In this document: one piece after another, positions 1 through 15,687 of the stretch
Position numbering within the stretch: the first letter of the stretch is position 1
Layout of the letters: each line of letters begins with the position of its first letter
NCBI RefSeq assembly: GCF_001457595.1
Contig: NZ_LN831039.1
Span: 4,650,001 to 4,682,000, forward strand
DNA: 32,000 bases
Direction of reading: 5' to 3'
DNA from: Mycolicibacterium smegmatis
Lineage (GTDB): Bacteria; Actinomycetota; Actinomycetes; Mycobacteriales; Mycobacteriaceae
Notes under the pieces: model-generated
Database searches by the model: none
Told to the model about the DNA's origin: nothing
The model's input: only the letters and a program-made list of their open reading frames with translations
Program-made: the position numbers and the translations under genes

Positions 1-880
1 TCGGACTCGGCGTCGATGATGGGAATCGGGTTGCCCGCATCATCGCCGTTGACATAGGATCCGGCTTCGCATCGAGCACCGGCCGCTCGGCGAACACGTA
101 CACCATGGTGTTGGCCGCTCGCGGATCCGTCCCGGCGGCCGGGCAGTCGGGACTGGCGCACAGGCACGCCAGCCGATCCCCACCGACGGCAATCACGCCC
201 ATCGCATCCGAACGTCGCTGCCCCGCTGTCCGCGGATCATCGACGCAGACCCCGGCCACCAATTGCGCGATCCTCTTCAGGTACGCCTCTCTGTCGGTGA
301 CGAGCACTCGCCCGTATATCGATGCCGTCCCCGTCTCGTCATCCGGCTTACCGAACCGGACGTCACGATCCCGCGCCGCCTGCCTGGTGCGCCGCACCGC
401 GGCCGGATCGTACTTCTCCAACAGGCTGTCGACACTGCGCTCCAACGCGACCACCGACATCGGCCCGAACTCATGAACGCGCGACGCCAGCTCTGCATCC
501 ACGACCGCCCACACCCGCGCATCGGTCACCAGCTGCGTCCGCCACGTCAACGTCTCCACCACCCGCGTACTCACCGCGCCCCGGGCGAACAACGCCGCCA
601 CCCGCGGCAATCGCTCACGCAACGCCTCGGCGATCCGCATCTCCTTGGACGCCGCCCGGTGCCCGATGTTCATCGCTGCGCCCACCTCAGCAGCCGTAGC
701 GTCCCAGTCATCACAGGCCCACGACACCACCGCGTCCTCCGAGGGCGCCGCTCGACGCGATGCCAGTTCAGCGATGAACGCCAACCGCCGCGCCGCAGCC
801 GCCGACTCCGCGCGCGACTCAACCTCGATACCGGCAACCAGTGCCTGATCGTCGAGGTCTTCGAACATACGTTCGATCAT
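1..880 (-). CDS. DUF222 / REP13E12-type HNH-endonuclease family protein, N-terminal part (3' end runs off the window)
   Basis: Absent from the ORF track because it has no in-window stop. My reverse-strand translation from the ATG (complement of 878..880) reads [43 protein letters not shown]...[48 protein letters not shown]...[25 protein letters not shown]...[10 protein letters not shown], with no stop down to position 1. This is the typical N-terminal DUF222 architecture of mycobacterial 13E12-repeat proteins. The overlapping plus-strand ORFs are Arg/Pro-rich shadows. Confidence 0.75.
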
Positions 881-977
881 GCCAGAGGCCACCGACAAGC
901 AGCGTGCCCGCCAAAGAGCCTGCCCGACTCGTCGGTTTCCGGCGTGTCCGATGGCCCGAATTGGTACCAAGGACAGC

Positions 978-1838
978 ATGATCGAGGTCACCCTGCTGGG
1001 AACCGGAAGTCCCATCCCCGATCCCGACCGGGCCGGACCGTCGACGATGGTCCGCGCAGGCGGGCAGACGTTCCTCGTCGACTGCGGCCGTGGTGTACTG
1101 CAGCGACTGGCGGCCGCCGGGTCGTCAGCCTCGCAGCTCAGCGCGCTGCTCCTGACACACCTACACAGCGACCACATCGCCGATCTGGGCGACGTGATCA
1201 TCACGCGCTGGGTGAGCACGTTCACCCCCGACGCCCCACCATTGCCGATCATCGGCCCGCCGGGAACCGCGGAGGTCGTCGAAGCCACGCTCAAGGCATT
1301 CGGACACGACATCGGCTACCGCATCGCCCACCACGACGACCTCACCGCGCCCCCACCGGTGGAGGTCCACGAACACACCGAGGGCGTGGTGTGGGATCGC
1401 GACGGTGTGGTGATCCGCGTGGGCCCCACCGACCACCGGCCCGTGACGCCGACGATCGCCTTCCGTGTCGAGCACGCGGACGCATCGGTGGTGGCGGCCG
1501 GTGACAGCGTGCCGTGCGCGACACTCGACGCCCTGGCCACCGGAGCGGGGGCCCTCATCCACACCGTGATTCGCAAAGACATCATCGAAACGCTTCCGCA
1601 GCAACGCATCCGCGACATCTGCGACTACCACTCGTCGGTGCAGGAGGCCGCGGCCACCGCGGCGCGGGCCGGGGTCGGCATCCTGATCCTCACCCACTAC
1701 GTCCCGGCCATCGCCCCAGGCACCGAGGACCAGTGGCGAGAACTGGCGGCCACCGAGTTCGACCGGCAGATCGAGGTCGGCGCGGATCTGCACCGCGTGG
1801 AAGTGCACCCGGGCGTGTGCGTCAAGCCGGTCGGGTGA
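978..1838 (+). CDS. MBL-fold metallo-hydrolase, ribonuclease Z-like (resembles M. tuberculosis Rv2407)
   Basis: Internal ATG at 978, preceded by AAGGA, gives [22 protein letters not shown]...FLVDCGRG. The HxHxDH metal motif is present (LTHLHSDH). The upstream 33 codons of the 879 ORF overlap the DUF222 gene start and look non-coding. Confidence 0.8.
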
Positions 1839-3338
1839 TCAGGCCGGAGAGAGCATCTTGTGCACCGTGAGCGCAACGGTGATCGGCAGCAGGTGTTGCG
1901 GATCCCCGAGGTCCGCGCCGGTAAGGCGCTCGATCCGCTCAAGGCGGTAGTACAGCGACTGCCGTCGCAGGTGGAGCCGTTTGGCGGCCTCCGCCTTGCT
2001 GCCGTTGCAGGAGATCAGCACCTCAAGTGTGTGAATGAGATGCCCGCCCTTGTCACTGTCCGCCTCGAGCAGCACCCCGATCTGGTCATCGACGAACTGC
2101 CGCAACACCTCCCGGTCTCCGAAACCGTTGAGCAGACGCTGCAGTGACAGCTCCTGCACGCCGATCACCGGCTCGAAGAGATGCAGATCCTGCCCCAACG
2201 AGAGAGTTCCGTAAGTATCCGTCATCGCCCGCGGCAGATCGGCGACGTCCCGCACGACACGGCCGACCGCAACGCAGGCCTGGCGCTGACCGCGCAATGC
2301 CCCGTCGACCGCTCGGCGCACATCTTCCGCAAGATTCCGGGAACTCTCATCTCGGGGACGAGTGACCAACGCACACAACCGACCTGCCACCACACCGAAG
2401 ATTCCGTGCCCGCACTGACGGATGGCGGCATCGACCATGCCCTCGGCGCTACGGACGCGATGCGTATCCACGGCGATGCAGACATATTCGTGGCCGGCAA
2501 CCGGCAGACCGGCTGCCTGCATCCTGGCCTGGAGCACCCCCCTGGCGACCGATCGGTTTCCGACGAGTTGCTCGAGCAGGATCTGCTGAGTGCGCAGCGC
2601 ACCCGCGAGATCTTTGTGTTCACGGATCAGACAGAGTCCGAGCACCGTCGGCGCCCGATCGAGCACAGCTTCACCGAGAAGCTCTGGGGCACCAGCGGTT
2701 CCGATAACCAGCCGCCCCCACGCGACCCCGTCCACCAACACCGGCGCATCAGCGCTCGGACCGTCACCCGGATGCATCCGGCCCGCCTCCGCGACCGTGC
2801 GCCCGGCGCGATCGAGCAACTGCGCCCAGGTGCCGAGCGAGGCGGCGACCTGTGCCAGAAGTTCCGCCAGCGACGCCCCCTTCGCCAACGCCACCGACAA
2901 CGCGCGCGACGTCTCGTCGGCGTGCCGCAAGCGAACCACCGAACGGTCGATCAGTTCACTGTTCACGGTTTCGGCGACCTCCGTGAACCTCAGGGCCGGT
3001 TTCAACTCGACAATGGTCAGACCCGTATCGCAGGCCTCGTCGACCATTTCCTCAGGCACACTGGGAAAAGTCCGCCCGACTTCGAAAAGCAATGCGGCAA
3101 TGCCGATCTCAGCGAGGCTGCGCACATATCGCCGACGCCCGGCGGCGTCGACGCTGACCAACCCGACACCGTTGGTCAACAACGCTTCACCACCTCGCAG
3201 CAGTGGGGCGATGTCGACAAGGTCCGCTGAATGCACCCAGCGCACCGGTACGTCGAGGGCGCCTGCCCCGCTGCGCACTACGGGCTCGGCGGGCCGCAGC
3301 AACGGGTGGTCGAGTACCTCTCGCACACTCAAGCTCAT
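1839..3338 (-). CDS. PucR family transcriptional regulator
   Basis: 499 aa. N-terminus MSLSVREVLDHPLL...VRWVHSADL is PucR/PurC-like. The C-terminal HTH is GSKAEAAKRLHLRRQSLYYRLERIERLTGADLGDP. It is divergent from the plus-strand operon that starts at 3442. Confidence 0.85.
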   Translation of the reverse strand: MSLSVREVLDHPLLRPAEPVVRSGAGALDVPVRWVHSADLVDIAPLLRGGEALLTNGVGLVSVDAAGRRRYVRSLAEIGIAALLFEVGRTFPSVPEEMVDEACDTGLTIVELKPALRFTEVAETVNSELIDRSVVRLRHADETSRALSVALAKGASLAELLAQVAASLGTWAQLLDRAGRTVAEAGRMHPGDGPSADAPVLVDGVAWGRLVIGTAGAPELLGEAVLDRAPTVLGLCLIREHKDLAGALRTQQILLEQLVGNRSVARGVLQARMQAAGLPVAGHEYVCIAVDTHRVRSAEGMVDAAIRQCGHGIFGVVAGRLCALVTRPRDESSRNLAEDVRRAVDGALRGQRQACVAVGRVVRDVADLPRAMTDTYGTLSLGQDLHLFEPVIGVQELSLQRLLNGFGDREVLRQFVDDQIGVLLEADSDKGGHLIHTLEVLISCNGSKAEAAKRLHLRRQSLYYRLERIERLTGADLGDPQHLLPITVALTVHKMLSPA

Positions 3339-3371
3339 GGACAGAATGTCTCACAAATCAGCGCGGTTTTT

Positions 3372-3393
3372 CTGACAAAGCGTCCGTTGTCAG
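3372..3393. promoter_or_regulatory. Perfect 7-bp inverted repeat CTGACAA-N8-TTGTCAG in the divergent PucR/deacetylase intergenic region (candidate operator)
   Basis: Read directly: ctgacaa (3372-3378), agcgtccg, ttgtcag (3387-3393). Each arm reads TTGTCA (a -35-like hexamer) on its own strand. On the plus strand, TTGTCA (3387-3392) is followed 18 nt later by CATTCT (3411-3416), a possible weak -10. Confidence 0.3.
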
Positions 3394-3441
3394 CAGGGTG
3401 CTGCGCACACCATTCTTGCCTCCACGACTTCGAACAGGAGA

Positions 3442-4359
3442 GTGATGGCTCCCGAGCAATCCCCCGAACAACCGACATCGGAATACGCCGGTGCCAACAG
3501 TTGGCGTGGCGACGCCGCCGCGGTCGCCATGCTGACCTTTGCCGTGGATGGCGTCACGCCCGTCCTTGCAGCGGGCCGCAGGCACGCCGACAATGCGATG
3601 GCGATAACGCACCAACAGTTCGACGCCAGGCGCGGCGTGCCGAGACTGTTGAGCATCCTCGACGAATTCGGCATCAAGGCAACCTTCTTCGTCCCCGGTC
3701 TGTCCGCAGAACTCTGGCCCGGCGTGGTCACGGCCATCACCGAACATGGCCACGACATCGCGCACCACAGCTATTCGCACCGCCCCGCGACCGGTCTCTC
3801 GGCGATCGAGGAGCGCATCGAATTCGAGCGCGGCTGCGAGGCTTTGGCCGCCCTGGGCATCAGTGCCAGTGGATACCGGTCACCGATGTGGGCCGCGACC
3901 TGGAACAGTGCGGAACTGGCAGTGGAGCACGGCCTCACCTACGACACGAGCCTCATGGACGACGACCGTCCCTACATCATCGAGACCGATCGCGGGCCCC
4001 TCGTGGAGCTGCCGCCGCACTGGTCGCTGGACGACTGGGAGCAGTATGCATACCTGCCCGAACCACACCTCGGCTACGTGATCGAACCACCGGAGAAGGC
4101 GCTGTCCTTGTGGACCGCCGAACTCGACGGCCTGCGCGAATTCGGAGGGCTGTTCCAGTTGACCGCGCACTCGTTCCTGTCCGGCCGGGCCGGGCGGGCC
4201 CGCAACCTCCGACGAATGATCGAAATCATCTGTGAGCGTGGCGATGTCGCGTTCATGACTGGAACTCAACTCCGCGACGCCGTACTGGCCGACCCGACAG
4301 TCGAACGCCGCAAGCTGGATCGTCTCACCGTCGACCCAGCCGTATATCCGAACTGGTGA
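3442..4359 (+). CDS. Polysaccharide deacetylase (NodB-homology) family hydrolase, possibly PuuE-like
   Basis: NodB motifs are present: TFAVDG, HHSYSH, YRSPMW. The GTG at 3442 or ATG at 3445 is preceded by CAGGAGAG. Confidence 0.85.
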   Translation: MMAPEQSPEQPTSEYAGANSWRGDAAAVAMLTFAVDGVTPVLAAGRRHADNAMAITHQQFDARRGVPRLLSILDEFGIKATFFVPGLSAELWPGVVTAITEHGHDIAHHSYSHRPATGLSAIEERIEFERGCEALAALGISASGYRSPMWAATWNSAELAVEHGLTYDTSLMDDDRPYIIETDRGPLVELPPHWSLDDWEQYAYLPEPHLGYVIEPPEKALSLWTAELDGLREFGGLFQLTAHSFLSGRAGRARNLRRMIEIICERGDVAFMTGTQLRDAVLADPTVERRKLDRLTVDPAVYPNW

Positions 4360-4372
4360 TTGGAGCGAACAC

Positions 4373-5287
4373 GTGACCACACTCGTGACAGGCGGGCGAG
4401 GCTTCGTCGGCCGCCACCTCGTCAACCAAATGCTCGACGCCGGCGAGACCGTCGTCAGTTACAACCGCGACTACGCCGTCGACGACCGACCCGGGCTGAC
4501 CGTGGTCCAGGGTGAATTGTTCGACATCCCCCGACTGGTCGACACACTGCAGCGGCACCGCGTCGAACGCATCATCCACACGGCAGGACAAAGTCACCCG
4601 GGCGTGTCCGTGGAACTGCCGGTCACCACGTTCGCGGCCAATGCCGAAGGCACACTGTCGGTTTACGAATGCGCACGCATGGCAGGTATCGCCAGGGTGG
4701 TCAACTTCTCATCCGAATGCGCACTGGGCAATCTCCGGCCCGACGGACTGCTCACAGAAGACGTCCGACCACAGCCGACAACGGTGTACGGGGTCACCAA
4801 GGTCACCGGTGAACTTCTCGGCACGGTCTACAACGACCTCTACGACATGCAGATCGTCTCGCTGCGGGTCACCGAGGTCTACGGCCCCGGCCTGTGGATG
4901 CCCAGCCTTCTCGGCGACATGATCCGCGCGGGACTGACCGGCCGAGAGTTCCGCCTGGAGTCCGGCGCCGACCATCCGTTCCAATTCGTGCACGTCGAGG
5001 ACGTCGCGACCGCCGCTCGCCTTGCCGCCGCGGCGTCCCCCCTGACGCAACAGGCGTACAACATCTCCGGAGGGAGCCAGGTCACTGTCGCCGACACCGC
5101 CGCACTGGTGCAGAAATACCTGCCGGAAGCCAAGTTCGACATCGGGCCGGGATTTCTTCCGCAGTGGGACCGGACCGCCGAGTTCGACCTGACGGCGGCG
5201 TCACGAGATCTCGGCTACCGACCGGCCTGGGAGCTCGACCGCGGCGTCGAGGCACTCATCGAGTGGATTGCGGGAGGCGAGCGATGA
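4373..5287 (+). CDS. NAD-dependent epimerase/dehydratase (extended SDR)
   Basis: Rossmann motif VTGGRGFVGRHL, catalytic YGVTK (YxxxK), GTG start preceded by GGAG. Confidence 0.85.
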   Translation: MTTLVTGGRGFVGRHLVNQMLDAGETVVSYNRDYAVDDRPGLTVVQGELFDIPRLVDTLQRHRVERIIHTAGQSHPGVSVELPVTTFAANAEGTLSVYECARMAGIARVVNFSSECALGNLRPDGLLTEDVRPQPTTVYGVTKVTGELLGTVYNDLYDMQIVSLRVTEVYGPGLWMPSLLGDMIRAGLTGREFRLESGADHPFQFVHVEDVATAARLAAAASPLTQQAYNISGGSQVTVADTAALVQKYLPEAKFDIGPGFLPQWDRTAEFDLTAASRDLGYRPAWELDRGVEALIEWIAGGER

Positions 5288-6096
5288 GCGGCAGGCGCCG
5301 CGTCGCGGTGGTCACGGGCGCGGCGTCGGGCATCGGCCTCGCGACTGCTTCTGTCCTGGCCCGTGACGGCGCCGATGTGGCGTTGTTCTCACGCCCGCAG
5401 GACGATTTCGGCCCCGCCGAGCGCCTCGTCGCACAGAACGGCGGTCGCGCTCTCCCCCTGGGCCTGGACATCGGTGACCGAGAGGCCGTCACAGAGGCGT
5501 TCGACAAGGTCGAAGCCGACCTTGGGCCGATCGACCTGGTGCACAACAACGCGGGCATCTCGATCGTGGCACCCCTTGTCGAGACCACCGACGACATGTT
5601 CGATCAGCTGATCCGGACCAACCTTGCCGGATCCTTCTACACACTGCGCGAGGCGGCGCGCGTCATGCAGCCACGCCGGCGCGGCGCAATCGTCAACACC
5701 GCTTCCGAACTGGCCATCATCGGCCAGGCCGGCTACGTGGCCTATACCGCCACCAAGGGCGCAATCCTCGCGATGACGCGTAGTGCGGCGGCCGAACTGT
5801 CCTCGTGGGGGATCCGGGTCAACGCGGTGTGTCCCGGCACCACAAGGACGCCGATGTTCCTGGCCGAGTTCGACGGTGCCACCGACCCCGCGGCCGAGCT
5901 CGCCGACAACGAGGCGAGCGTGGCCATGGGCCGGATCGCCGAACCGCGGGAAATCGCCGAAGCCGTCGCGTTCCTGCTTTCCGATCGTGCCGGATACATC
6001 ACCGGCACCCACGTGGTTGCCGATGGCGGCCGCACCACCTGCATCCCAGTCGGCACCATCGGCGTTGCTGCGCAACAACACTCATCGAAACGGTAG
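5284..6096 (+). CDS. SDR family oxidoreductase (classical short-chain dehydrogenase)
   Basis: Internal ATG at 5284 forms an ATGA overlap with the upstream stop. Motifs: VVTGAASGIGLA, HNNAGI, YTATK. The N-terminal 130 codons of the 4894 ORF are an Arg-rich shadow inside the epimerase gene. Confidence 0.9.
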   Translation: MSGRRRVAVVTGAASGIGLATASVLARDGADVALFSRPQDDFGPAERLVAQNGGRALPLGLDIGDREAVTEAFDKVEADLGPIDLVHNNAGISIVAPLVETTDDMFDQLIRTNLAGSFYTLREAARVMQPRRRGAIVNTASELAIIGQAGYVAYTATKGAILAMTRSAAAELSSWGIRVNAVCPGTTRTPMFLAEFDGATDPAAELADNEASVAMGRIAEPREIAEAVAFLLSDRAGYITGTHVVADGGRTTCIPVGTIGVAAQQHSSKR

Positions 6097-6108
6097 AGAG
6101 GCACCGAT

Positions 6109-7524
6109 ATGACCAAACCCGACGCACCGCCCGTCGAGCGCGACACCCGGACTCGGCTCGAACAGCTGGGCTACAAACAGTCCCTCAAACGCCGCCTCAA
6201 CGTCGCCGAGGTTGTGGGATTGGCGATGGCGGACGTCTCGCCCACGATGGCCGTACTGTTCCTGTCCGCAGGCGTGTTCTTCGTCGGTGGCACCTTCTCG
6301 ATCGGCGCGGGCTTGATCTTGTCGGCCGTCGTCGTGCTCATAGCCCTGTGTCTGGCTGAACTTGCCGCGATGTTCCCGATCGCAGGCGGCATGTACTCAC
6401 TGGTGCAGAAGATCCTGCCGGGCCCGTTCGCCTGGGTCACGATGTTCAACTACCTGATTCAGGGAATCGTCATCCCGGCCAGCATCGCGCTGGGCATGGT
6501 CGCATTCTTGAAGGATCTGTTCCCCGCGCTCACGATGCCCGACCCTGTCCTGGCTGTCATCCTGCTGGCGGTCGCCACCGCCGTCGCACTCACCACGGTC
6601 GAGGTCGGTGCATGGGTGACCGCGATCATGGTCGTCGTCGAGTTGGCCGTCCTCGGCATCATCACGGTCGCCGCGTTTGCGCAGCCCCATCAGTCGATCG
6701 CCGAGGTGACCTTCCACCCGACGGTGCTCAGCAATGGCGAACTCATCGGCGTCGGCTTCGGGGTGATGCTCGCGACGCTGGCACCTGCCTTCAATGTGAT
6801 CAACGGTTACGACGCGTCATTGGGCTTCGCCGAAGAACTCAAGGGCGGCGAGCGCAAGATCGGTAAGGCAGTTGTCATCTCTGCGGTCCTGGCCTGTGTG
6901 TTCATCATGGTTCCGCTGACCGCCGCGGTGATCGCCGCCCCCGACCTCAAAGAGTTCTTCGAAGCCCCCTCTCCGGTGGTGTATTCGGTGGAGGCGTCCC
7001 TCGGCTCGAAAGCGGGCGCCATCGTCGACATAGGCGCCACCATCGCTTTGTTCAACGGAATGCTGGCGCTGCTCATGTATTTCGCGCGCGGTGTCTACAC
7101 CACTGGACGCGACCAGGCCTGGCCGCCTGCCGTCAACAGGTTGGTCGGCAAACTCAACCGCTTCCGCGCACCCGGCGCCGGGGTCATGGTGCTGGCTGTC
7201 CCCGCCGCGGTCCTGGTGTTCACCTCCGCGCTGAACTTCCTGATCCTCTTCGCCGGCACGGTGATCGCCGCGGTGTACTTCTGCATCGGACTGGCCGCGC
7301 TCTGGAGTCGCCGCAGCATGCCCGATGAGCCCCGGCCCTTCAAGATGCCGTTGTGGCCGGTGCCACCACTGATCGTCGTCATCTTCACCGGAGTCGCACT
7401 CGGCATGCAAGAGACCGACTATCTCATCGCCGAACTCATCTTGATCTGCCTGGCACTGGCGTGCTGGGCCGGATCGAAGCGATGGTCGCGCCCCGCCGCA
7501 CGTGATCATGACGTCGACGCCTGA
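6109..7524 (+). CDS. APC superfamily amino acid / polyamine-type permease
   Basis: 471 aa and strongly hydrophobic, with about 12 predicted helices by eye. Typical APC N-terminus (LKRRLNVAEVVGLAMADVSPT). GAGAGG RBS before the ATG. Confidence 0.85.
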   Translation: MTKPDAPPVERDTRTRLEQLGYKQSLKRRLNVAEVVGLAMADVSPTMAVLFLSAGVFFVGGTFSIGAGLILSAVVVLIALCLAELAAMFPIAGGMYSLVQKILPGPFAWVTMFNYLIQGIVIPASIALGMVAFLKDLFPALTMPDPVLAVILLAVATAVALTTVEVGAWVTAIMVVVELAVLGIITVAAFAQPHQSIAEVTFHPTVLSNGELIGVGFGVMLATLAPAFNVINGYDASLGFAEELKGGERKIGKAVVISAVLACVFIMVPLTAAVIAAPDLKEFFEAPSPVVYSVEASLGSKAGAIVDIGATIALFNGMLALLMYFARGVYTTGRDQAWPPAVNRLVGKLNRFRAPGAGVMVLAVPAAVLVFTSALNFLILFAGTVIAAVYFCIGLAALWSRRSMPDEPRPFKMPLWPVPPLIVVIFTGVALGMQETDYLIAELILICLALACWAGSKRWSRPAARDHDVDA

Positions 7525-7561
7525 ACGCGACACACCAGGAGAAATCGGGAAGGAGCCCCCC

Positions 7562-8350
7562 GTGGTCACCGAAACCAGGACCACCCTCTACCAGAACCTG
7601 ACCTGGCCAGAGATTTCCGAGGCTGCGCACGACGGAACACCTGTCGTCATTCCCATCGGGGCCACCGAACAGCACGGGCATCACCTTCCGGTGTGCACAG
7701 ACTGGGTGCTGCCCGAACGCATCCTGCTGGAGGCCAGCAGGCACCGGCACTTCCTGGTCGGCCCGTTCATCCCGTTCGGGTACCGGAGCAGACCGGGAAG
7801 TGGTGGCGGGCAGCATATCCCGGGTACGGTATCGCTGCGGGCGACCACCTTCATGTCCATGTTGGAAGATGTTCTCGGCGAACTGATCCGCACCGGGTTC
7901 ACCAAGATCGTGTTGTACAACTGGCATTTCGAGAACAGCGGCTTCGTCTACGAGCCGGCGTTCATGGTCAGTGATCGGCACCCGGACGTGAAGATCGTCG
8001 TCATCGAGGATGTCAATCCGGAGTACACCCCTGAGCGGGTGGGACAGATCTGGCCGGACGAGTTCCCAGGTCTGGCATTGGAACACGCCGCGGTGATCGA
8101 GACCTCCTTGTGGATGCATCACTGTCCGGATCTGGTGCGCATCGGCGGCATCGCACCTGATCGCCCGCAACGTGTGGTCAACCACGATGTCCTCCCGATC
8201 GACCACAGGCTGTCCACCGCAAGCGGCGCGCTGTCCTCGCCGGTGCCCGCATCCGCCGACAAAGGCAAGCTGCTGACACAGTGGTTCGTCGAGCGGATCC
8301 TGAATGTGTTGGCGGACGAGTTTCCCACCACTGCCGGCGCAACAGGATGA
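7562..8350 (+). CDS. Creatininase (creatinine amidohydrolase) family protein
   Basis: Family signature VVIPIGATEQHGHHLPVCTDW. I prefer the GTG at 7562 because GGAAGGAG lies 7-8 nt upstream. The ATG at 7502, overlapping the permease by 23 nt, is the alternative. Confidence 0.85.
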   Translation: MVTETRTTLYQNLTWPEISEAAHDGTPVVIPIGATEQHGHHLPVCTDWVLPERILLEASRHRHFLVGPFIPFGYRSRPGSGGGQHIPGTVSLRATTFMSMLEDVLGELIRTGFTKIVLYNWHFENSGFVYEPAFMVSDRHPDVKIVVIEDVNPEYTPERVGQIWPDEFPGLALEHAAVIETSLWMHHCPDLVRIGGIAPDRPQRVVNHDVLPIDHRLSTASGALSSPVPASADKGKLLTQWFVERILNVLADEFPTTAGATG

Positions 8351-9300
8351 CCGCGGGCCCGATCGGGGCGGTGCCTGCCACCGAGGTCCCCAGATACGCA
8401 GGAAAAGCGACCTTCGCCAGGATCGCCGACATCCACGAAGTCGCCGACTATGACATCGCGATCCTCGGAGTGCCGTTCGATGGCGGAACGTCCTACCGAC
8501 CGGGTGCCCGATTCGGGCCGATGGCCGTACGGCAGGCCGCCAGAACACTCCGCCCGGACTTCCACGTCGAGTTAGGTGTCGCACCACTGCGGACCGTGCA
8601 GGTCGTCGACGCCGGGGACGTGACGGTCACGCCATATGACATCGAGACCGCGTGCACGCAGATCCAGGCACACGCCACCGAGATCCTCGGCGGCGCCGAC
8701 CGCAGGATCATCTCCATCGGCGGTGACCACACCATCGCACTGCCGAACCTACGAGCGTTGCACGCGGGTCACGGTCCGGTCGCCCTCGTACACTTCGACG
8801 CCCACCTGGACACCTGGGACACCTACTTCGCCGCGCCCGTCACCCACGGCACCATTTTCCGCAGAGCCTTCGAAGAGGGCCTCCTGGTCGAGGACCACTC
8901 GATCCACATCGGTATCCGAGGCCCGATCTATGACCGCGCGGACCTCGACGACGACGCCAGAATGGGGTTCCGGATCATCCGGGCGGGCGACCTGGACGTC
9001 GTCGGCATCGACGCCGCGGTCGACGCCGTGAAGCGTCGTGTCGGTGACACGCCGGTCTACCTGTCGGTGGACATCGACGTCCTCGACCCGGCGTTCGCCC
9101 CCGGGACGGGAACCCCCGAGTCCGGTGGACTGAGCGCTCGCGAATTGCTCGGCATGCTTCGGCGACTCAACGGCCTGAACCTGGTGGGCGCCGATGTTGT
9201 CGAGGTGGCTCCGGCCTACGACCACGCAGAGATCACGTCTGTCGCCGCCGCAACAGTGGTGTTCGATCTCGTTTCCCTGATGGTGAGAGGGTCCGGGTGA
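8347..9300 (+). CDS. Ureohydrolase (arginase/agmatinase/guanidino-acid hydrolase) family protein
   Basis: Mn-binding motifs GGDHTIALP, HFDAHLDTWD and SVDIDVLDPAFAPGTGTPESGGLS. The ATG at 8347 forms an ATGA overlap with the creatininase stop. Confidence 0.9.
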   Translation: MTAGPIGAVPATEVPRYAGKATFARIADIHEVADYDIAILGVPFDGGTSYRPGARFGPMAVRQAARTLRPDFHVELGVAPLRTVQVVDAGDVTVTPYDIETACTQIQAHATEILGGADRRIISIGGDHTIALPNLRALHAGHGPVALVHFDAHLDTWDTYFAAPVTHGTIFRRAFEEGLLVEDHSIHIGIRGPIYDRADLDDDARMGFRIIRAGDLDVVGIDAAVDAVKRRVGDTPVYLSVDIDVLDPAFAPGTGTPESGGLSARELLGMLRRLNGLNLVGADVVEVAPAYDHAEITSVAAATVVFDLVSLMVRGSG

Positions 9301-9347
9301 GCCGGGTGATCACGTCCGCCGTGAGTGCGGATCACGCGATGTGACAT

Positions 9348-9375
9348 TGTCTTGCGTATCGCGTCTTCCTAATGT
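9348..9375 (+). promoter_or_regulatory. Putative sigma-70-type promoter for the 9400-15650 operon
   Basis: TTGTCT (9348-9353), a 16-nt spacer, then TAATGT (9370-9375, fits TANNNT). GGAG at 9387-9390 lies before the ATG at 9400. This is a hexamer match only. Confidence 0.25.
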
Positions 9376-9399
9376 CGGGCGTATGCGGAGATTCGAAGG

Positions 9400-10416
9400 A
9401 TGAGCCGGGCCCGGCGCAGTGACGGTCCGGTGATCGACATCCACTGTCATCGCGAATGCGGGCCGGCCGCCGAGTTCATGGCCGACGCCGCGCGGGCAGC
9501 GGGAAAAGTGGCGCTGGGACACGGCAATCCGACCACCCAGGCGGTGAACCGGCGCCAACTCGCATTGATCCGGCCCAAGATGGACTTCCTCGACGTCCGG
9601 CTCGCCGACATGGACCGCATGGGCGTGGACATCCAGGCGGTCGCGGTCTCGGTGTACCAGTACTACTACTGGGCCGACGCCGAACTCGGTGCCAAGGTCG
9701 CACGGATCGTCAACGAGGAACTCGTCGAGTCGACATCGGCACACCCCGGCCGGTTCCTTCCACTGGGCACCGTGCCGCTTCAGGACACCGAAGCAGCGAT
9801 CGCCGAATTACGCTATCTGGCATCAGAACTCGGCATGCGCGGCATCGAAATCGGCACGCACGTCGAGGGTGAGGAGATCTCGAGCCCGCGGCTGGAACCG
9901 TTCTGGGCCGAGGTCGAGGCGCTCGGTCTCGTCGTCGTCATCCACACGCAGGGAGCCACGCACCCCCAGCGACTGGCAGACCACAATTTCGTGAACATCA
10001 TCGGCCACGCGTTCGAGGCCACGCTGGCCACCGCGCATCTCATCTTCGACGGTGTCGTGGCGCGCCACCCCGATCTGAAGATCGTCGTCGTGCACGGCGG
10101 CGGCTACCTGCCCGCGTATGCCGGACGCATCGACCACGGCTGGAATGCGCGCGACGACGTCCGCGAAGGGGTTCCCGAACTCCCAAGCCACTATCTGCGC
10201 AAGTTCTACTTCGACACCATGGTGTTCGAACCCGACCAACTCGAATACCTCATCGGCAAGTACGGCGCCGACCACGTCGTCCTCGGCACCGACTACCCGT
10301 ACGACATGGGTGACGACGATCCACTCGGGCTGCTCGGAGAAGTCCCCGGACTGGATCAGGCCAAGGTCGATCTCATCGCAGGCGGAAACGCCGCACGACT
10401 TCTGGGGTTGTTATGA
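9400..10416 (+). CDS. Amidohydrolase_2 (ACMSD/LigJ-like, COG2159-type) family protein
   Basis: N-terminal metal motif VIDIHCH. VVHGGGYLPAYAGRIDHGW and LGTDYPYDMG are typical of the family. Confidence 0.85.
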   Translation: MSRARRSDGPVIDIHCHRECGPAAEFMADAARAAGKVALGHGNPTTQAVNRRQLALIRPKMDFLDVRLADMDRMGVDIQAVAVSVYQYYYWADAELGAKVARIVNEELVESTSAHPGRFLPLGTVPLQDTEAAIAELRYLASELGMRGIEIGTHVEGEEISSPRLEPFWAEVEALGLVVVIHTQGATHPQRLADHNFVNIIGHAFEATLATAHLIFDGVVARHPDLKIVVVHGGGYLPAYAGRIDHGWNARDDVREGVPELPSHYLRKFYFDTMVFEPDQLEYLIGKYGADHVVLGTDYPYDMGDDDPLGLLGEVPGLDQAKVDLIAGGNAARLLGLL

Positions 10417-11555
10417 GCACACCACTACCTGCGCACGGCTCCGTCGGGCTCGCGGTCATCGGATGCGGCACGGTCGGCAGGATCCGCGCGATGCTGGCAC
10501 GGGAGTATCCCGGCATCGAATGGCTCGGTCTGTGCGACGTCGACGAGCAGGTCCTCAAGGACCTGACCGCCGACACCGATGCCGACTTCGCCACCACGGA
10601 CATCACCGAACTGCTGGCACGGCCCGAGGTGGGCGCGGTCATCATCGCGACCGATGAACGCGAGCACGTCGATCCGATCCTGCGTTCGGTGGAACTGGGT
10701 GTCCCGCTGTTCATCGAGAAGCCACTGGCCACCGATCCGGCGGACTCCGCTCGCGTGCTCGCGGCGATCACCGATGCCGGCGTCGACGCCGTCGTCGGCT
10801 ACACCCAGCGGTTCCGGCGACGATTCCAGACCGTCAAGCAACGCCTACGCGACGGCCAGATCGGTGATGTCACAACGGTCGTCACCCGGGCGTTCATGAA
10901 TCGCATGGTCCCGGAGGCCACCCTGCGGAAGGTGACGGACACGACCAACCTCACCCCCATGGTGGTATCGGGCACCCACAGCCTCGACATGTGCATGTGG
11001 CTGCTGGAGGGCCGAAAGCCGGTCGAGGTGTATGCGCGCTCCACCGACCGCACCCTGGGCCCGATCGGCACCAAGGACGGTACGTCGGGGATCTTCACGA
11101 TGGACGACGGCGTGGTGTTCAGCATGAACATCAACTGGGCGCTGCCGACGGTCTGGCCGGGCGCGGTGTACGGACTGGAGATCGGCATCGTCGGGACCCG
11201 CGGCGTGATCGACATCGAGGACACCCACCGCGACGTCATCCTCGCCTCCGAGATCGGGCAGCCTGCGGGATACAACAGCCGTGGATTCGAGCCACCCGCA
11301 CCCCGGCACGTGGATTTCGTGGGCAGCTATCCCCCGGGCGACGTATCGGACGGCATGTTGTGGGGCCCGATGCGCGAGGAGACCACCACCTGGTTCGCCC
11401 GGATCTGCCGCGGTATCAACACACCACACGCCACCGCGGCAGACGGCCACGCCAACCTGATCCACACCATGGCAATGGATTTGTCCTCGCGGACCGGCCG
11501 CCCCGTTCCCCTGCCGATAGACCCCGGTGAACTCCTCGCCGGACTCAAACCCTGA
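10413..11555 (+). CDS. Gfo/Idh/MocA family oxidoreductase
   Basis: N-terminal Rossmann fold LAVIGCGTVG and the EKP motif (LFIEKPLATD). ATGA overlap with the upstream gene. Confidence 0.85.
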   Translation: MSTPLPAHGSVGLAVIGCGTVGRIRAMLAREYPGIEWLGLCDVDEQVLKDLTADTDADFATTDITELLARPEVGAVIIATDEREHVDPILRSVELGVPLFIEKPLATDPADSARVLAAITDAGVDAVVGYTQRFRRRFQTVKQRLRDGQIGDVTTVVTRAFMNRMVPEATLRKVTDTTNLTPMVVSGTHSLDMCMWLLEGRKPVEVYARSTDRTLGPIGTKDGTSGIFTMDDGVVFSMNINWALPTVWPGAVYGLEIGIVGTRGVIDIEDTHRDVILASEIGQPAGYNSRGFEPPAPRHVDFVGSYPPGDVSDGMLWGPMREETTTWFARICRGINTPHATAADGHANLIHTMAMDLSSRTGRPVPLPIDPGELLAGLKP

Positions 11556-11572
11556 TTCGAAAGGACCCGGGC

Positions 11573-12652
11573 ATGCGCCAGATCAATCTCGGAATCATCG
11601 GAACCGGTTGGTGCGGCGGCATCCGCGCCGTCACGGCGTCGCGAAGCCCACTCGTCGCCGATCTGCATCTCGCCGAGATCAACCCGGCGCGGAGGGCCGA
11701 GATCACCGGACTGACCGATCCGACGTACGTCACCGAGCATTGGCAGGAACTCGTCGAGAATCCGGGCCTCGACGCGATCGTCGTCTCCGCCACACCCGAG
11801 GACCTGCACTACCCGATGACGAAAGCTGCTCTGGAAGCGGGCAAGCACGTGCTTCTCGAGAAGCCCGTGGCCGTGACCCTGGCCGAGGCCGACGAACTCA
11901 TCGCGCTGGCCGAGAGCGCCAACCTCAAGTTCACGATCGGTTACTCGCAGCGGTTCAACGACAAACAGGCCATGATCAAACGGGCCATCAACGACGGTAC
12001 ATTGGGGAACGTCACCAGCATCCTGCTGAGCCGCCACATCACACGATCGCTGGGCGCCAAGATCTCCTCGCGCACAAAGCTGTCCCCCGCTGCCATGGAA
12101 GCCACTCACGATCTCGATTTCGCGTTCTGGTGCCTTGAGCCACGCCGGCCCGTGCGGGTGTACTCGCAGAACGCCTGGGGCGTAAGGGCATCCACCCTCG
12201 GCTCACCCGACACCCAGTACCTGGTGGTGACCATGGACGACGGTGTGGTGGTGACGGTCGGCGCCGGCATGTCCCTGCCGCCGGGCTATCCGAACGCGTC
12301 GACGACCTGGATGGAGGTGATCGGCACCGAGGGCGCGGTGCTCGCCGACGCCAGCCACCGTGACATCGTGCTGAACACCGTGAGCAACGGCGTGCAATTC
12401 CCGTTGTCCACCATGCCCGGCGAATTCGTCGACCACGTGTACTCGGGGCCCATGGAACGCGAGACCACGCACTTCATCGAAGCCGTCGCCTGTGACCGCC
12501 CGGTCCTGGTGGAGGCACGACTCGCGCGCGTCACCATGGAGGTCTACCTGGCCGCCGATCTCTCCGCGCAGCGCAACGAAGTGGTGCACCTGCCGTTGTC
12601 CGAGGAGGACATCCTCCAGACGCAAGCCGAGACGGCCCTGAGCCGCGCATGA
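11573..12652 (+). CDS. Gfo/Idh/MocA family oxidoreductase (paralogue of the preceding gene)
   Basis: LGIIGTGWCGG, VLLEKPVAVT, AAAGGA RBS. Confidence 0.85.
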   Translation: MRQINLGIIGTGWCGGIRAVTASRSPLVADLHLAEINPARRAEITGLTDPTYVTEHWQELVENPGLDAIVVSATPEDLHYPMTKAALEAGKHVLLEKPVAVTLAEADELIALAESANLKFTIGYSQRFNDKQAMIKRAINDGTLGNVTSILLSRHITRSLGAKISSRTKLSPAAMEATHDLDFAFWCLEPRRPVRVYSQNAWGVRASTLGSPDTQYLVVTMDDGVVVTVGAGMSLPPGYPNASTTWMEVIGTEGAVLADASHRDIVLNTVSNGVQFPLSTMPGEFVDHVYSGPMERETTHFIEAVACDRPVLVEARLARVTMEVYLAADLSAQRNEVVHLPLSEEDILQTQAETALSRA

Positions 12653-13725
12653 CCGATGCGGCCGAGTGGTGGCCGGAACTGGCGCCGCGCATCGAGACGT
12701 CGCGCGCACCCAAACCGCCCGGCACCTGCGTGGACGCCCACACCCACCTGTCGGTGAAACCCGCTGCGGCACTCGCGAAACCATACTTCCGCCCCGAATA
12801 CGAACCGCGGTCGCTGTACTCGTCGGAGGAGACCACGCGCTACAACGCCGAATACCGCGCGAGCCCACTCAACACCGCACAGTTCGAGGAGGCCGAGCAA
12901 CGCCTGGCCGACATGGACGCCCAGGGCGTCGACATCCAACTGCTCGCGGTGCCACCGACCGAGTACTTCTATTGGCTTCCCGAAGATGAGGCGTTACAGG
13001 CCAACCGGATTCAACACGAACGCATCGCCGAGGTGGTGACGACATGGCCGACCCGGTTCGCCGGGGTGGCCAACGTCCCGATGAACTACCCCAAGCTGGC
13101 GGTGGAGACCCTGCGGGAAGCGCAGCGTGAGTTCGGCTTCCACGGCGTCGAGATCAGCGCCGACGTGCTGGGCCTGGATCTCGACGACCGGCGGTTCGAT
13201 CCGTTCTGGGAGGCTGTCGTCGAACTGGACATGACGGTGATCCTGCATCCCCAGGGATTCACGCACGGCCAGCGGTTCACCGACTACTACCTGGTGAACG
13301 TCATGTGCATGCCGTTGGCCTCCACGCTGGCCGTGACGCGGATGATCCTCGGCGGTGTATGGAGGCGTCACCCGCACCTGCGCGTGCTGGTGGTGCACGG
13401 CGGCGGGTACCTGCCGTTCTACATCGCACGTACCGACCACGCCTGGCGGGTGCGGCCCGAACTGCGCCATCATCTCGACATCCCGCCGAGCGAGGTGCTG
13501 CGCTCGATCTATGTGGACACCAACGTGTTCGATGCGCGGATGGTCGAGCAACTCGTACGCGACCTGGGTGCCGATCACGTGGTGATGGGCACCGACTACC
13601 CGTTCGACATGAGCACGGTCGACCCGGTCGCGTTCCTCTCCGGAACACGAATGTCCGAGGATGACCGGGCACAGGTGCTGGGCGGCAACGCGATCCGCCT
13701 GTTCAAGATCGACGCGGCACCATGA
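12649..13725 (+). CDS. Amidohydrolase_2 family protein (paralogue of 9400-10416)
   Basis: CVDAHTHLS, VVHGGGYLPFYIARTDHAW, MGTDYPFDM. ATGA overlap with the upstream gene. Confidence 0.85.
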   Translation: MTDAAEWWPELAPRIETSRAPKPPGTCVDAHTHLSVKPAAALAKPYFRPEYEPRSLYSSEETTRYNAEYRASPLNTAQFEEAEQRLADMDAQGVDIQLLAVPPTEYFYWLPEDEALQANRIQHERIAEVVTTWPTRFAGVANVPMNYPKLAVETLREAQREFGFHGVEISADVLGLDLDDRRFDPFWEAVVELDMTVILHPQGFTHGQRFTDYYLVNVMCMPLASTLAVTRMILGGVWRRHPHLRVLVVHGGGYLPFYIARTDHAWRVRPELRHHLDIPPSEVLRSIYVDTNVFDARMVEQLVRDLGADHVVMGTDYPFDMSTVDPVAFLSGTRMSEDDRAQVLGGNAIRLFKIDAAP

Positions 13726-14762
13726 TGCGTGTTCCCGCCGCGACGCTCGAGCGTTTCGCCGCCGACGCCCTGCGCACGAGCGGCGTCGCGAGCGACCATG
13801 CCGACATCACCGCGCGCCGCCTCGTCGAGGCCGACATGCGTGGACGCACCGGGCACGGCCTGATCCGGCTGCCCTCCTACCTGTCGCGTATCCGGGCGGG
13901 CGGGGTGAACGTGCGTCCCGAGATCGCGGTGCTCCACGAGACACCGGTGTCCGCGCTGATCGACGGCGACAACGCACTCGGACAGGTGGTGATGACCAGG
14001 GCCACCGAGTTGGCCATCGAGAAGGCGCGACAATCGGGGCTGGCGTGGGTGGGCACCGTGCACTCGAATCATGCGGGCGCGGCCGGTCTGTACGCGCACA
14101 TGGCCGCCGACGCTGGATGCGTCGGGATCTACCTCGCCGTGGCCAACGCCAACGGGATGCCGCCCTGGGGCGGGACGAACCCGCTGCTCGGCACCAACCC
14201 GCTGGCGATCGCGATCCCCACCACCTCGACCCCGTTCGTGCTCGACATCGCCACCACCACGGCATCACACGGCACCATCAAAGTGGCTGCCCGCGAGGGT
14301 CGCCCGATGCCCCAGGGGTGGGTCATCGACACGGCGGGCCGACCGATCACCGACCCGTCGAAAGCCCACGAGGGTTTCCTGGTGCCGATCGGCGGCTACA
14401 AGGGTGCCGGCCTCACCATCGCGATCGGCCTGCTCGCCGGCGTGCTCAACGGGGCCGCGTTCGGCGCCGACGTGATCGACCATCGCGTCGACGGGAGCAC
14501 CCCGACCAACACCGGGCAGGCCGTCCTGGTGCTGCGCACCGACCTGTTCCGCCCAAAGCCCGTAGTCCTCGCGGAGCTCACACGTCATCTGGACGCGCTG
14601 CGCGACTCGGGCGCGATCGACGGTGGCCGCGTGAGGCTTCCCGGGGACGAGGCGGCCCGAATGCAAGCCGACGCCCAACGATTCGGCGTGCCGGTGCCGG
14701 ACAAACTCGCCGCGCAACTGCGCGACGTGGCACGTGACACCGGAGTCGAGTCCCCCTTCTAG
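13722..14762 (+). CDS. Ldh_2 (malate/L-lactate/ureidoglycolate dehydrogenase type 2) family oxidoreductase
   Basis: RRLVEADMRGRTGHGLIRLPSYLSRIRAG and SNHAGAAG are typical of the family. ATGA overlap with the upstream gene. Confidence 0.85.
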   Translation: MMRVPAATLERFAADALRTSGVASDHADITARRLVEADMRGRTGHGLIRLPSYLSRIRAGGVNVRPEIAVLHETPVSALIDGDNALGQVVMTRATELAIEKARQSGLAWVGTVHSNHAGAAGLYAHMAADAGCVGIYLAVANANGMPPWGGTNPLLGTNPLAIAIPTTSTPFVLDIATTTASHGTIKVAAREGRPMPQGWVIDTAGRPITDPSKAHEGFLVPIGGYKGAGLTIAIGLLAGVLNGAAFGADVIDHRVDGSTPTNTGQAVLVLRTDLFRPKPVVLAELTRHLDALRDSGAIDGGRVRLPGDEAARMQADAQRFGVPVPDKLAAQLRDVARDTGVESPF

Positions 14763-14774
14763 AGAGGACGACAC

Positions 14775-15650
14775 ATGAAACTCGCCACCTATCGGCGGCC
14801 AGGGGGCGCCCCCGAGATCGGTGTGGTCGACGGAGACAAACTGGTGCCGCTCACCGCCGAGGACGGCTTCCCGCCCACCATGGTGGAGTTCGTCGCACTT
14901 GGCGCCGAAGGTCTGCGTCGTGCGGCGAAGGTGGCGGCCACCGCGCCCCGTATCGCGGCCGGCACCGTCCGGTTACTGGCACCGATCCGTCCGCACAACA
15001 ACGTGATGTGCGTGGGCAAGAACTACCATGACCACGCCGAGGAGTTCGCGGGCAGCGGTTTCGACGCCAGCCAGAAACAGGTGGTTCCCGACATCCCGGT
15101 GATCTTCACCAAGGCGCTGTCGTCGATCGTCGGTCCGGGTGACGAGGTCCGCGTGAGCGATGACCCCACGCACACGAGCGATTACGAGGGCGAACTCGCG
15201 GTGGTGATCGGCGAGGGCGGGCATCGGATCGCCGCGGCGGATGCGTTCGCACACGTCTACGGCTACACCATCGTCAACGACGTCACGATCCGCGATCTGC
15301 AGAAGCGCCATGTGCAGTTCTTCATCGGCAAGAGCGCCGCCACCTACGGTCCGATGGGTCCGGTGCTGGTGACCGCCGACGAGATCGGCGACGTGAACGC
15401 CTTGCGGGTGCAGACCCGGATCAACGGGGAGTTGCGTCAGGACGCACCGCTGGCCGACCTGATCTTCGACATCCCCACGGTGATCGAGGCGATCTCGGCG
15501 GCGGTGCTGCTGCAACCCGGCGACGTGATCGCCACCGGCACACCGGCCGGTGTGGGCATCGGGTTCACCCCGCCGCGTTTCCTGTCGCCGGGCGACCTCA
15601 TGGAGGTCACCGTCGACGGCATCGGCACGCTGTCCAATCCTGCTGTGTAG
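14775..15650 (+). CDS. Fumarylacetoacetate hydrolase (FAH) family protein
   Basis: VMCVGKNYHDHAEE, IFTKALSS, DYEGELAVVIG, YTIVNDVTIRDLQ, ATGTPAGVG. Confidence 0.9.
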   Translation: MKLATYRRPGGAPEIGVVDGDKLVPLTAEDGFPPTMVEFVALGAEGLRRAAKVAATAPRIAAGTVRLLAPIRPHNNVMCVGKNYHDHAEEFAGSGFDASQKQVVPDIPVIFTKALSSIVGPGDEVRVSDDPTHTSDYEGELAVVIGEGGHRIAAADAFAHVYGYTIVNDVTIRDLQKRHVQFFIGKSAATYGPMGPVLVTADEIGDVNALRVQTRINGELRQDAPLADLIFDIPTVIEAISAAVLLQPGDVIATGTPAGVGIGFTPPRFLSPGDLMEVTVDGIGTLSNPAV

Positions 15651-15668
15651 CAGGCAAAACAGCGTGCC
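15624..15668. terminator. Nested stem-loop at the convergent FAH / ABC-ATPase junction (candidate factor-independent, U-tract-less terminator)
   Basis: The outer arm ggcacgctgt (15624-15633) pairs with acagcgtgcc (15659-15668). The inner hairpin pairs cctgct (15639-15644) with agcagg (15649-15654) around loop gtgt. That gives 16 bp in total, and the structure encloses the FAH stop TAG (15648-15650). Confidence 0.45.
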
Positions 15669-15687
15669 GTGCGCCACCCGGTGCGGA

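Follow-up and report, generated by a model that had tools for sequence, protein, structure and literature searches.

We analysed a 32,000-nucleotide stretch of Mycolicibacterium smegmatis DNA (NCBI RefSeq assembly GCF_001457595.1, contig NZ_LN831039.1, positions 4,650,001 to 4,682,000 of the forward strand; the whole stretch is referred to here as the window, and has a G+C content of ~66%), in which six plus-strand genes at positions 3442-9300 lie divergent from the gene for a PucR-family regulator. An earlier note, made from the sequence alone, had proposed that they form an operon for the uptake and breakdown of a guanidino or cyclic-amidine compound. Gene families were assigned by Pfam and NCBIfam scans and gene junctions were taken from the sequence; together these bore out every gene family named in that note, the divergent regulator and the succession of co-directional genes joined by tight gaps or ATGA overlaps.

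The first gene encodes a NodB-fold hydrolase of the NodB1.2 (3RXZ/PuuE-like) subclass (3442-4359, plus strand; Polysacc_deac_1, 58 bits) and is followed after a 13-nt gap by the gene for an extended short-chain dehydrogenase/reductase (SDR) of the NAD-dependent epimerase/dehydratase family (4373-5287, plus strand; PF01370, 151 bits), which overlaps by ATGA at 5284 with the gene for a classical SDR dehydrogenase (5284-6096, plus strand; adh_short_C2, 207 bits). A 12-nt gap separates the latter from the gene for an APC-superfamily permease, the presumed substrate importer (6109-7524, plus strand; AA_permease_2, 108 bits). The last two genes, which overlap by ATGA at 8347, encode a creatininase-family binuclear metallo-amidohydrolase with an altered pocket (7562-8350, or from 7502 in a longer reading, plus strand; PF02633, 177 bits) and an arginase-fold ureohydrolase with guanidino-acid-hydrolase features (8347-9300, plus strand; PF00491, 313 bits). 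The PucR-family transcriptional regulator is encoded on the minus strand at 1839-3338 (PucR, 90.9 bits; GGDEF_2; HTH_30, 70 bits), so that a 103 bp divergent intergenic region at 3339-3441 forms the presumed promoter/operator. No sigma-70 consensus was found in 3339-3441, the sigma-70 and terminator scan having given nothing meaningful in this high-GC organism, and no tRNA, riboswitch (guanidine riboswitch included) or other Rfam family was detected in positions 1-10000.

The creatininase-family gene most likely starts at 7562 and not at 7502, given that its homologues are ~260 amino acids long and that the GTG at 7562 is preceded by the ribosome-binding site GGAAGGAG. With this start codon, 37 nt separate the gene from the permease stop, and the two genes do not overlap. 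The sole terminator-like hairpin in positions 3200-9600 was found at 7546-7562 on the minus strand, covering the ribosome-binding site and start of the creatininase-family gene; it is probably a chance match, though it could form in the transcript and influence how that gene is translated.

The creatininase-family protein

The EQHGHH motif reported in the earlier note is present in the creatininase-family protein, which aligned to P. putida creatininase at 156 bits. It passed the creatininase equivalog model TIGR04448 narrowly, at 250.1 bits against a cut-off of 235; the same model gave 311.8 bits for the Rhizobiales counterpart and 266 bits for the protein of a second layout from the same genus (locus L093, described below). 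The MftE model gave 70 bits, and we therefore set aside the possibility that the protein belongs with the MftE-like peptidases. The M. smegmatis creatininase named in the literature is MSMEG_1425, which lies ~3 Mb away from the operon and which we take to be part of the mycofactocin locus (MftE).

The alignment to P. putida creatininase was mapped onto all homologues, and residue numbers are those of the P. putida protein. Seven residues (E34, H36, D45, H120, E122, H178 and E183) were invariant among the homologues, the window protein included. In creatininase E34, H36, D45, H120 and E183 are metal ligands and E122 and H178 are catalytic, and their invariance indicates that the homologues are working hydrolases. 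The substrate pocket is altered at Trp154 and Trp174, the residues that we take to line the creatinine pocket and to be the targets of the mutant structures 3A6E-3A6H. Using an adjacent M24 creatinase gene to define canonical creatininases, we found Trp174 in nine of the nine M24-linked homologues, the proteobacterial members of which also keep Trp154. At the Trp174 position the proteins linked to ureohydrolase and SDR genes have Leu throughout in mycobacteria and Ile throughout in Rhizobiales, and the window protein and the rest of the mycobacterial clade have no Trp aligned at 154 and carry Trp in place of Gly119. The M24-linked creatininases were encoded on plasmids in Paracoccus, Azoarcus, Mesorhizobium terrae, Brucella anthropi, Paraburkholderia and Leisingera, at loci with GlxA or LysR regulators and either a polyamine-type ABC importer or a cytosine-type permease.

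Both a quick and a careful tree of the creatininase homologues placed the M24-linked proteins in clades of their own. The homologues linked to ureohydrolase and SDR genes fell into two separate and fully supported clades, one mycobacterial and one Rhizobiales, each in a different half of the tree beside M24-linked proteins of its own phylum. An approximately unbiased (AU) test rejected the union of these two clades (p = 0.001; the grouping was chosen once the tree was known). A single origin of the mycobacterial and Rhizobiales modules was rejected on this basis, a result to be read with care in view of the post hoc grouping. No M24 creatinase was found in the window by library scans and no close one in the genome by tblastn, the Creatinase_N matches being generic Xaa-Pro peptidase domains. 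A search for the SoxD (sarcosine oxidase) family was uninformative, as the control genomes gave no match either.

The ureohydrolase and its partner enzymes

The ureohydrolase has intact Mn-ligand motifs (GGDH, DAHxD and DxDxxDP), in agreement with the earlier note. Its best solved relatives were GpuA (248 bits), proclavaminate amidinohydrolase (PAH; 246 bits) and GbuA (237 bits), with E. coli SpeB (217 bits) and the guanidine hydrolase entry 7ESR (179 bits) scoring lower. The protein passed two agmatinase models (NF002564, 320.6 bits against 302; TIGR01230, 226 bits against 174), which capture guanidino-acid hydrolases too, a GpuA-like protein from locus L016 also passing. In the alignment GbuA R72 is matched by an Arg (motif TLRP), where SpeB has Ala, and GpuA Y157 and GbuA M161 by a Tyr (motif DTYF), unlike in E. 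coli SpeB; a further motif, FRRA, stands where SpeB has FYTA. GbuA R72 is an Arg that caps the site from the neighbouring subunit and is the proposed binder of the substrate carboxylate (PMC9772407), and GpuA Y157/GbuA M161 is a substrate-recognition residue (PMC10833137). Paralogues of the ureohydrolase in its own genome share the Arg and the Tyr, so that chain length is not fixed by these residues.

In a quick tree the window ureohydrolase and its orthologues grouped as sister to three same-genome paralogues, the enzymes from Rhizobiales made up a separate clade, and SpeB sat on a distant long branch. Neither this tree nor the scores and alignments of the relatives gave the clustering with SpeB that the earlier note had set against its own proposal, and the sequence indicates an enzyme with guanidino-acid-hydrolase features that is not SpeB-like. 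The Mn ligands, the R72-type Arg, the Y157-type Tyr and the FRRA motif are shared with GpuA and GbuA of P. aeruginosa (PDB 3NIP and 3NIO) and with human AGMAT/GDAH; the window enzyme nevertheless matches GpuA and GbuA at just about half of the aligned positions and groups with actinobacterial paralogues. To our knowledge, the Pseudomonas gpuA and gbuA genes adjoin a transporter and a LysR regulator only, with no creatininase-like or SDR genes.

Both dehydrogenases are catalytically intact as judged by their motifs: the extended SDR keeps GxxGxxG and YxxxK, the classical SDR keeps TGxxxGIG, the Ser and YxxxK, and cofactor and catalytic motifs were kept in the two window SDRs and in the four SDRs with which they were compared. 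The extended SDR matched no NCBIfam equivalog at its cut-off, and the classical SDR shares 35-40% identity with the SDRs encoded in the Rhizobiales and L093 modules. Those from Rhizobiales have the Asp that characterises NAD-dependent (oxidative) dehydrogenases. For the APC permease no NCBIfam model reached its cut-off. The NodB-fold enzyme scored 44.9 bits with the PuuE model TIGR03212 (cut-off 424.6), far under the cut-off, which ruled out its identification as PuuE; it scored 230 bits to the uncharacterised structure PDB 3RXZ and 38.6 bits to PDB 3CL6. The NodB1.2 subclass holds both 3RXZ and PuuE allantoinase, and its members are suspected of acting on non-carbohydrate substrates (PMC10967932).

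Conservation and related gene sets

Conservation was examined by scanning species-representative genomes and then running tblastn with the window proteins on the fetched loci. The complete order, with the PucR gene divergent from genes for the NodB-fold hydrolase, extended SDR, classical SDR, APC permease, creatininase-family protein and ureohydrolase, was found in approximately nine other Mycolicibacterium and Mycobacterium genomes at 69-89% identity per protein, and for this reason we regard the arrangement as more than chance. Across loci L001-L010 the regulator keeps its position at 60-72% identity and the permease is 74-84% identical. The operon is thus real and conserved. It is also patchy in occurrence, a close creatininase homologue being found in just 4 of 401 sampled genomes of the class, and many proteins 55-80% identical to the creatininase-family protein occur in Nocardia, Streptomyces and soil metagenomes.

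Two genomes of the same genus have a second layout (L093 and L094), in the order ureohydrolase paralogue, ureohydrolase, class II aldolase, 2-hydroxyacid dehydrogenase, creatininase-family protein, SDR, SDR and TetR, with the ureohydrolase 80% and the creatininase-family protein 58% identical to those of the window. A third arrangement was found at ~20 loci in Rhizobiales (Mesorhizobium, Ciceribacter, Shinella, Pinisolibacter and others), where a LysR gene is divergent from an SsuA/NMT1-type ABC importer, two SDRs, the creatininase-like gene and the ureohydrolase gene. The core that recurs there comprises the two SDRs, the creatininase-like gene, the ureohydrolase and a transporter, and the creatininase-like and ureohydrolase genes remain adjacent across the two phyla. 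The Rhizobiales ureohydrolase aligned to the 3-guanidinopropionase GpuA at 477 bits with near-identical specificity loops, a likeness that points to a short guanidino acid, probably 3-guanidinopropionate or a very similar compound, as the penultimate intermediate of the Rhizobiales modules.

Two variants were noted beside these. On plasmid pRheCIAT894b of Rhizobium sp. CIAT894 (L096:4956-10722), a creatininase-speB pair is divergent from genes for a pyridoxal phosphate (PLP) enzyme, two SDRs and an HpcH-type aldolase; the PLP enzyme is of class V and cysteine-desulfurase-like, nearby genes encode a polar-amino-acid ABC importer and an aldehyde dehydrogenase, and the locus may be a branch that feeds the route from an arginine-like amino acid. 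In an uncultured Actinomycetota metagenome-assembled genome (MAG; L012:2219-11407, with L013 alike) we observed a hydantoin-utilisation-like cluster containing an M20 hydrolase, a distant ureohydrolase, an NCS1-like permease, an Asp/Glu/hydantoin racemase, three divergent creatininase paralogues and a luciferase-like monooxygenase, a content that suggests use of 5-substituted iminohydantoins.

The M. smegmatis genome encodes five arginase-family proteins and two ureases. Two paralogous loci resemble the operon: L103 at ~1.11-1.12 Mb (G000:C1:1111621-1118860), in which a PucR gene is divergent from an APC permease gene and an SDR, a ureohydrolase and a NodB-fold hydrolase gene follow further on, and L104 at ~4.457-4.465 Mb (G000:C1:4457181-4465271), with an APC permease, two SDRs, a ureohydrolase, a NodB-fold hydrolase, a Rieske oxygenase and a reductase in succession, a PucR gene further on, and also a formamidase. 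Their ureohydrolases are 57-60% and their NodB-fold hydrolases 42-43% identical to those of the window. These loci suggest a family of related nutrient routes, to which the window operon adds the creatininase-like gene and the extended SDR as specific features. In both loci the NodB-fold paralogue directly follows the ureohydrolase paralogue, and two copies of the triplet of SDR, ureohydrolase and NodB-fold genes are present in a different genome of the genus. The NodB-fold enzyme thus regularly accompanies such ureohydrolases. At a further locus (L106; G000:C1:4537914-4540423) the gene for an NCS1 permease of the cytosine/allantoin type overlaps the start of the gene for a fourth ureohydrolase paralogue, which by its coordinates is MSMEG_4459, a gene up 3.2-fold under nitrogen limitation (PMC4617892).

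Other observations concern the flanks of the operon. At 2-1312 the minus strand encodes a DUF222 protein (13E12-repeat/HNH type), and RNA-seq reads from a related species match 1500-1840 at 95-99% identity, all of them ending at 1840, one base beyond the PucR stop, a pattern suggestive of a repeated mobile element whose end lies against the regulator of the operon. Three RNA-seq runs labelled as the same or a related species had essentially no reads on 1840-16000 and are uninformative about expression. On the other side, a plus-strand row at 9400-15650, the first gene of which begins 99 nt past the operon, encodes an Amidohydro_2 protein, two GFO/IDH/MocA oxidoreductases, a further Amidohydro_2 protein, an Ldh_2 protein and an FAH-family hydrolase, and looks like a sugar-acid or cyclitol-type route. 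We rejected these genes as members of the operon because they do not adjoin it in L001-L009; one of them may, by coordinates, be MSMEG_4567, which is up 2-fold under nitrogen limitation. We also rejected the idea of a strain-specific island missing from mc2155, since the offsets of marker genes on either side of the window differ by just ~250 bp.

A candidate route for guanidino compounds and its rivals

Our interpretation, held with about even confidence, is that the six genes form an operon, inducible and under PucR control, for the catabolism of an imported guanidino compound other than plain creatinine. Directly observed are the gene content, the translational coupling, the conserved synteny, the intactness of the catalytic sites, the changes in the creatininase pocket and the features that the ureohydrolase has of the guanidino-acid type; we infer the substrate, the order of the steps and the role of each SDR. 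Across lineages the conserved set consists of one or more dehydrogenases, a creatininase-like amidohydrolase whose pocket has changed and a ureohydrolase of the guanidino-acid type. The mechanism that follows is the simplest explanation of this set, although its particular order of steps is doubtful. The APC permease would import a compound with an oxidisable carbon in addition to its guanidino group. Hemiaminals form spontaneously from guanidino aldehydes by cyclisation, and creatinine is an N-methyl five-ring cyclic acylguanidine; one or both SDRs would oxidise a hydroxyl or cyclic hemiaminal carbon to give a cyclic acylguanidine, a creatinine-like lactam. The creatininase-family enzyme would hydrolyse the ring amide to a linear guanidino acid, the ureohydrolase would split this into urea and an amino acid, and the two ureases would release nitrogen from the urea. 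The NodB-fold, PuuE-like enzyme might perform a further amide hydrolysis, either deacylating a precursor or opening a second or alternative ring. In the variant clusters the aldolases, together with the PLP enzyme in L096 and the 2-hydroxyacid dehydrogenase in L093, could supply the guanidino aldehyde, the source of which could be a hydroxylated arginine-type amino acid.

The opening of a ring or amide followed by de-amidination, as the earlier note had suggested, gains support from the translational coupling of the creatininase-family and ureohydrolase genes and from their adjacency across two phyla, and its suggestion of a hydroxylated carbon skeleton fits the presence of the SDRs within the conserved core. 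The logic of import, ring opening and removal of an N-terminal C1-N unit is shared with the hydantoin-utilisation clusters (hydantoinase, racemase, N-carbamoylase and NCS1 permease); in contrast to these, the ring in the window route would be the 2-imino (guanidine) analogue, and an arginase-fold enzyme would free urea where the carbamoylase gives CO2 and NH3.

Several points weigh against this interpretation. The role of the NodB-fold enzyme is not accounted for, and the cofactor preference of the window SDR is ambiguous. The creatininase equivalog cut-off is passed by both the window and the Rhizobiales proteins. With separate creatininase-family clades and different ureohydrolase branches, the mycobacterial and Rhizobiales modules may act on different compounds; neither enzyme family is monophyletic across the modules, so the clue given by GpuA reaches the window by analogy only and may not transfer to it. 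Finally, none of the six operon genes appears in the M. smegmatis nitrogen-limitation list (PMC4617892; approximate coordinate mapping, in which the tabulated coordinates of an agmatinase, a dicarboxylate symporter and an ammonium transporter match the genome within 0.1-1.2 kb). Their absence fits substrate-specific induction through PucR and is no demonstration of it.

A specific case of the guanidino interpretation, which we regard as unlikely in itself, is the catabolism of gamma-hydroxyarginine, gamma-hydroxyhomoarginine or a guanidino alcohol, in which the chain would be shortened to a guanidino aldehyde and then pass through the SDR, creatininase-like and ureohydrolase steps. The basis of this proposal is chemical reasoning alone. 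It agrees with the amino-acid type of the APC permease, with the class-V PLP enzyme, HpcH-type aldolase and polar-amino-acid ABC importer added in the Rhizobium plasmid variant, with the class II aldolase and 2-hydroxyacid dehydrogenase added in L093, and with the GpuA-like ureohydrolases of the Rhizobiales modules; however, the window operon has no aldolase or aminotransferase, and the binding protein of the core Rhizobiales modules is of the SsuA/NMT1 type and not of an amino-acid type.

We consider it quite unlikely that the operon serves creatinine utilisation, with the creatininase homologue yielding creatine and the arginase-fold enzyme replacing the M24 creatinase to give sarcosine and urea, a replacement that the earlier note had raised. 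The canonical pathway (CrnA, EC 3.5.2.10, of P. putida, PDB 1J2T, with M24 creatinase) does share with the operon the binuclear metallo-amidohydrolase family with its metal and catalytic residues, and an order of ring opening then urea release beside a transporter and a regulator. The TIGR04448 score, the alignment to the P. putida enzyme with every catalytic residue kept, the lack of a close creatinase in the genome by tblastn and the coupling of the last two genes all speak for this pathway. Against it, the urea-releasing enzyme of the window has the arginase fold and not the M24 fold, and the window protein has Leu at the Trp174 position and no Trp at 154, unlike the creatinase-linked enzymes sampled, which keep Trp174 and form separate clades. 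Two dehydrogenases and a NodB-fold hydrolase, conserved alongside and additional to the canonical pathway, would be left without a role, and no sarcosine-oxidising genes are present in the window. Human AGMAT, a characterised relative of the ureohydrolase, did not hydrolyse creatine (PMC9772407).

The third possibility, a PucR-controlled ureide-like pathway for the oxidised guanine products guanidinohydantoin and iminoallantoin, appears improbable to us. Here the PuuE-like NodB-fold enzyme would open the hydantoin form, the creatininase homologue would open the 2-iminohydantoin form, and the ureohydrolase would take urea from a guanidino-ureido acid, chemistry of a kind proposed in a review (PMC12623156). 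The window operon would have in common with the PuuE allantoinase ureide pathway (PDB 3CL6) a NodB1.2-type fold acting on a small cyclic amide and not on polysaccharide, a regulator of the PucR (purine catabolism) family and nitrogen scavenging that yields urea. In the MAG cluster of L012, a hydantoin racemase, an NCS1 permease, an M20 hydrolase and a ureohydrolase accompany the three creatininase paralogues. However, PucR-family regulators govern many non-purine pathways, the PuuE model was missed by a wide interval (45 bits against 425) with 3RXZ as the nearest structure, and the permease is of the APC type and not of the NCS1/allantoin type. The SDRs are left unexplained, the operon lacks the other ureide-pathway genes, and no uricase-like or purine genes lie nearby. 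Lastly, that the genes are neighbours without a common pathway, the ureohydrolase being an ordinary polyamine agmatinase as its pass of NF002564 (321 bits against 302) might suggest, is very improbable in view of the start/stop codon overlaps, the six-gene synteny at 69-89% identity in many species, the five arginase-family genes of the genome and the greater closeness of the enzyme to guanidino-acid hydrolases than to SpeB.

The guanidino interpretation might, with rather low probability, be widened to a general bacterial route for guanidino alcohols and aldehydes, in which a cyclic hemiaminal would be oxidised by an SDR to a cyclic acylguanidine, opened by an 'acylguanidine lactamase' and passed to a guanidino-acid hydrolase, in parallel with the sugar route through hemiacetal, lactone and lactonase. 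The 'acylguanidine lactamase' would be derived from creatininase and lack the creatinine-specific Trp174, and Actinobacteria and Proteobacteria would have assembled the route independently from different branches of the enzyme families; it is the joint claim to which this low probability applies.

No published pathway or paper for a creatininase/ureohydrolase/SDR module was found in literature searches; the operon thus brings familiar enzyme families together, as a variant on an established catabolic logic, in an arrangement for which the searches turned up no pathway. Guanidino compounds (arginine derivatives, phosphagens, plant guanidines, creatinine and guanidine) make up a large and poorly mapped nitrogen pool, and few specificities of bacterial ureohydrolases are known. 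The automatic names 'creatininase' and 'agmatinase/speB' are probably wrong for a whole clade. The combination recurs in soil mycobacteria, in relatives from Nocardia and Streptomyces, among soil metagenome proteins and, as similar sets, in root-associated Rhizobiales, and its presence in M. smegmatis opens the proposed use of guanidino compounds to genetic testing in a model mycobacterium.

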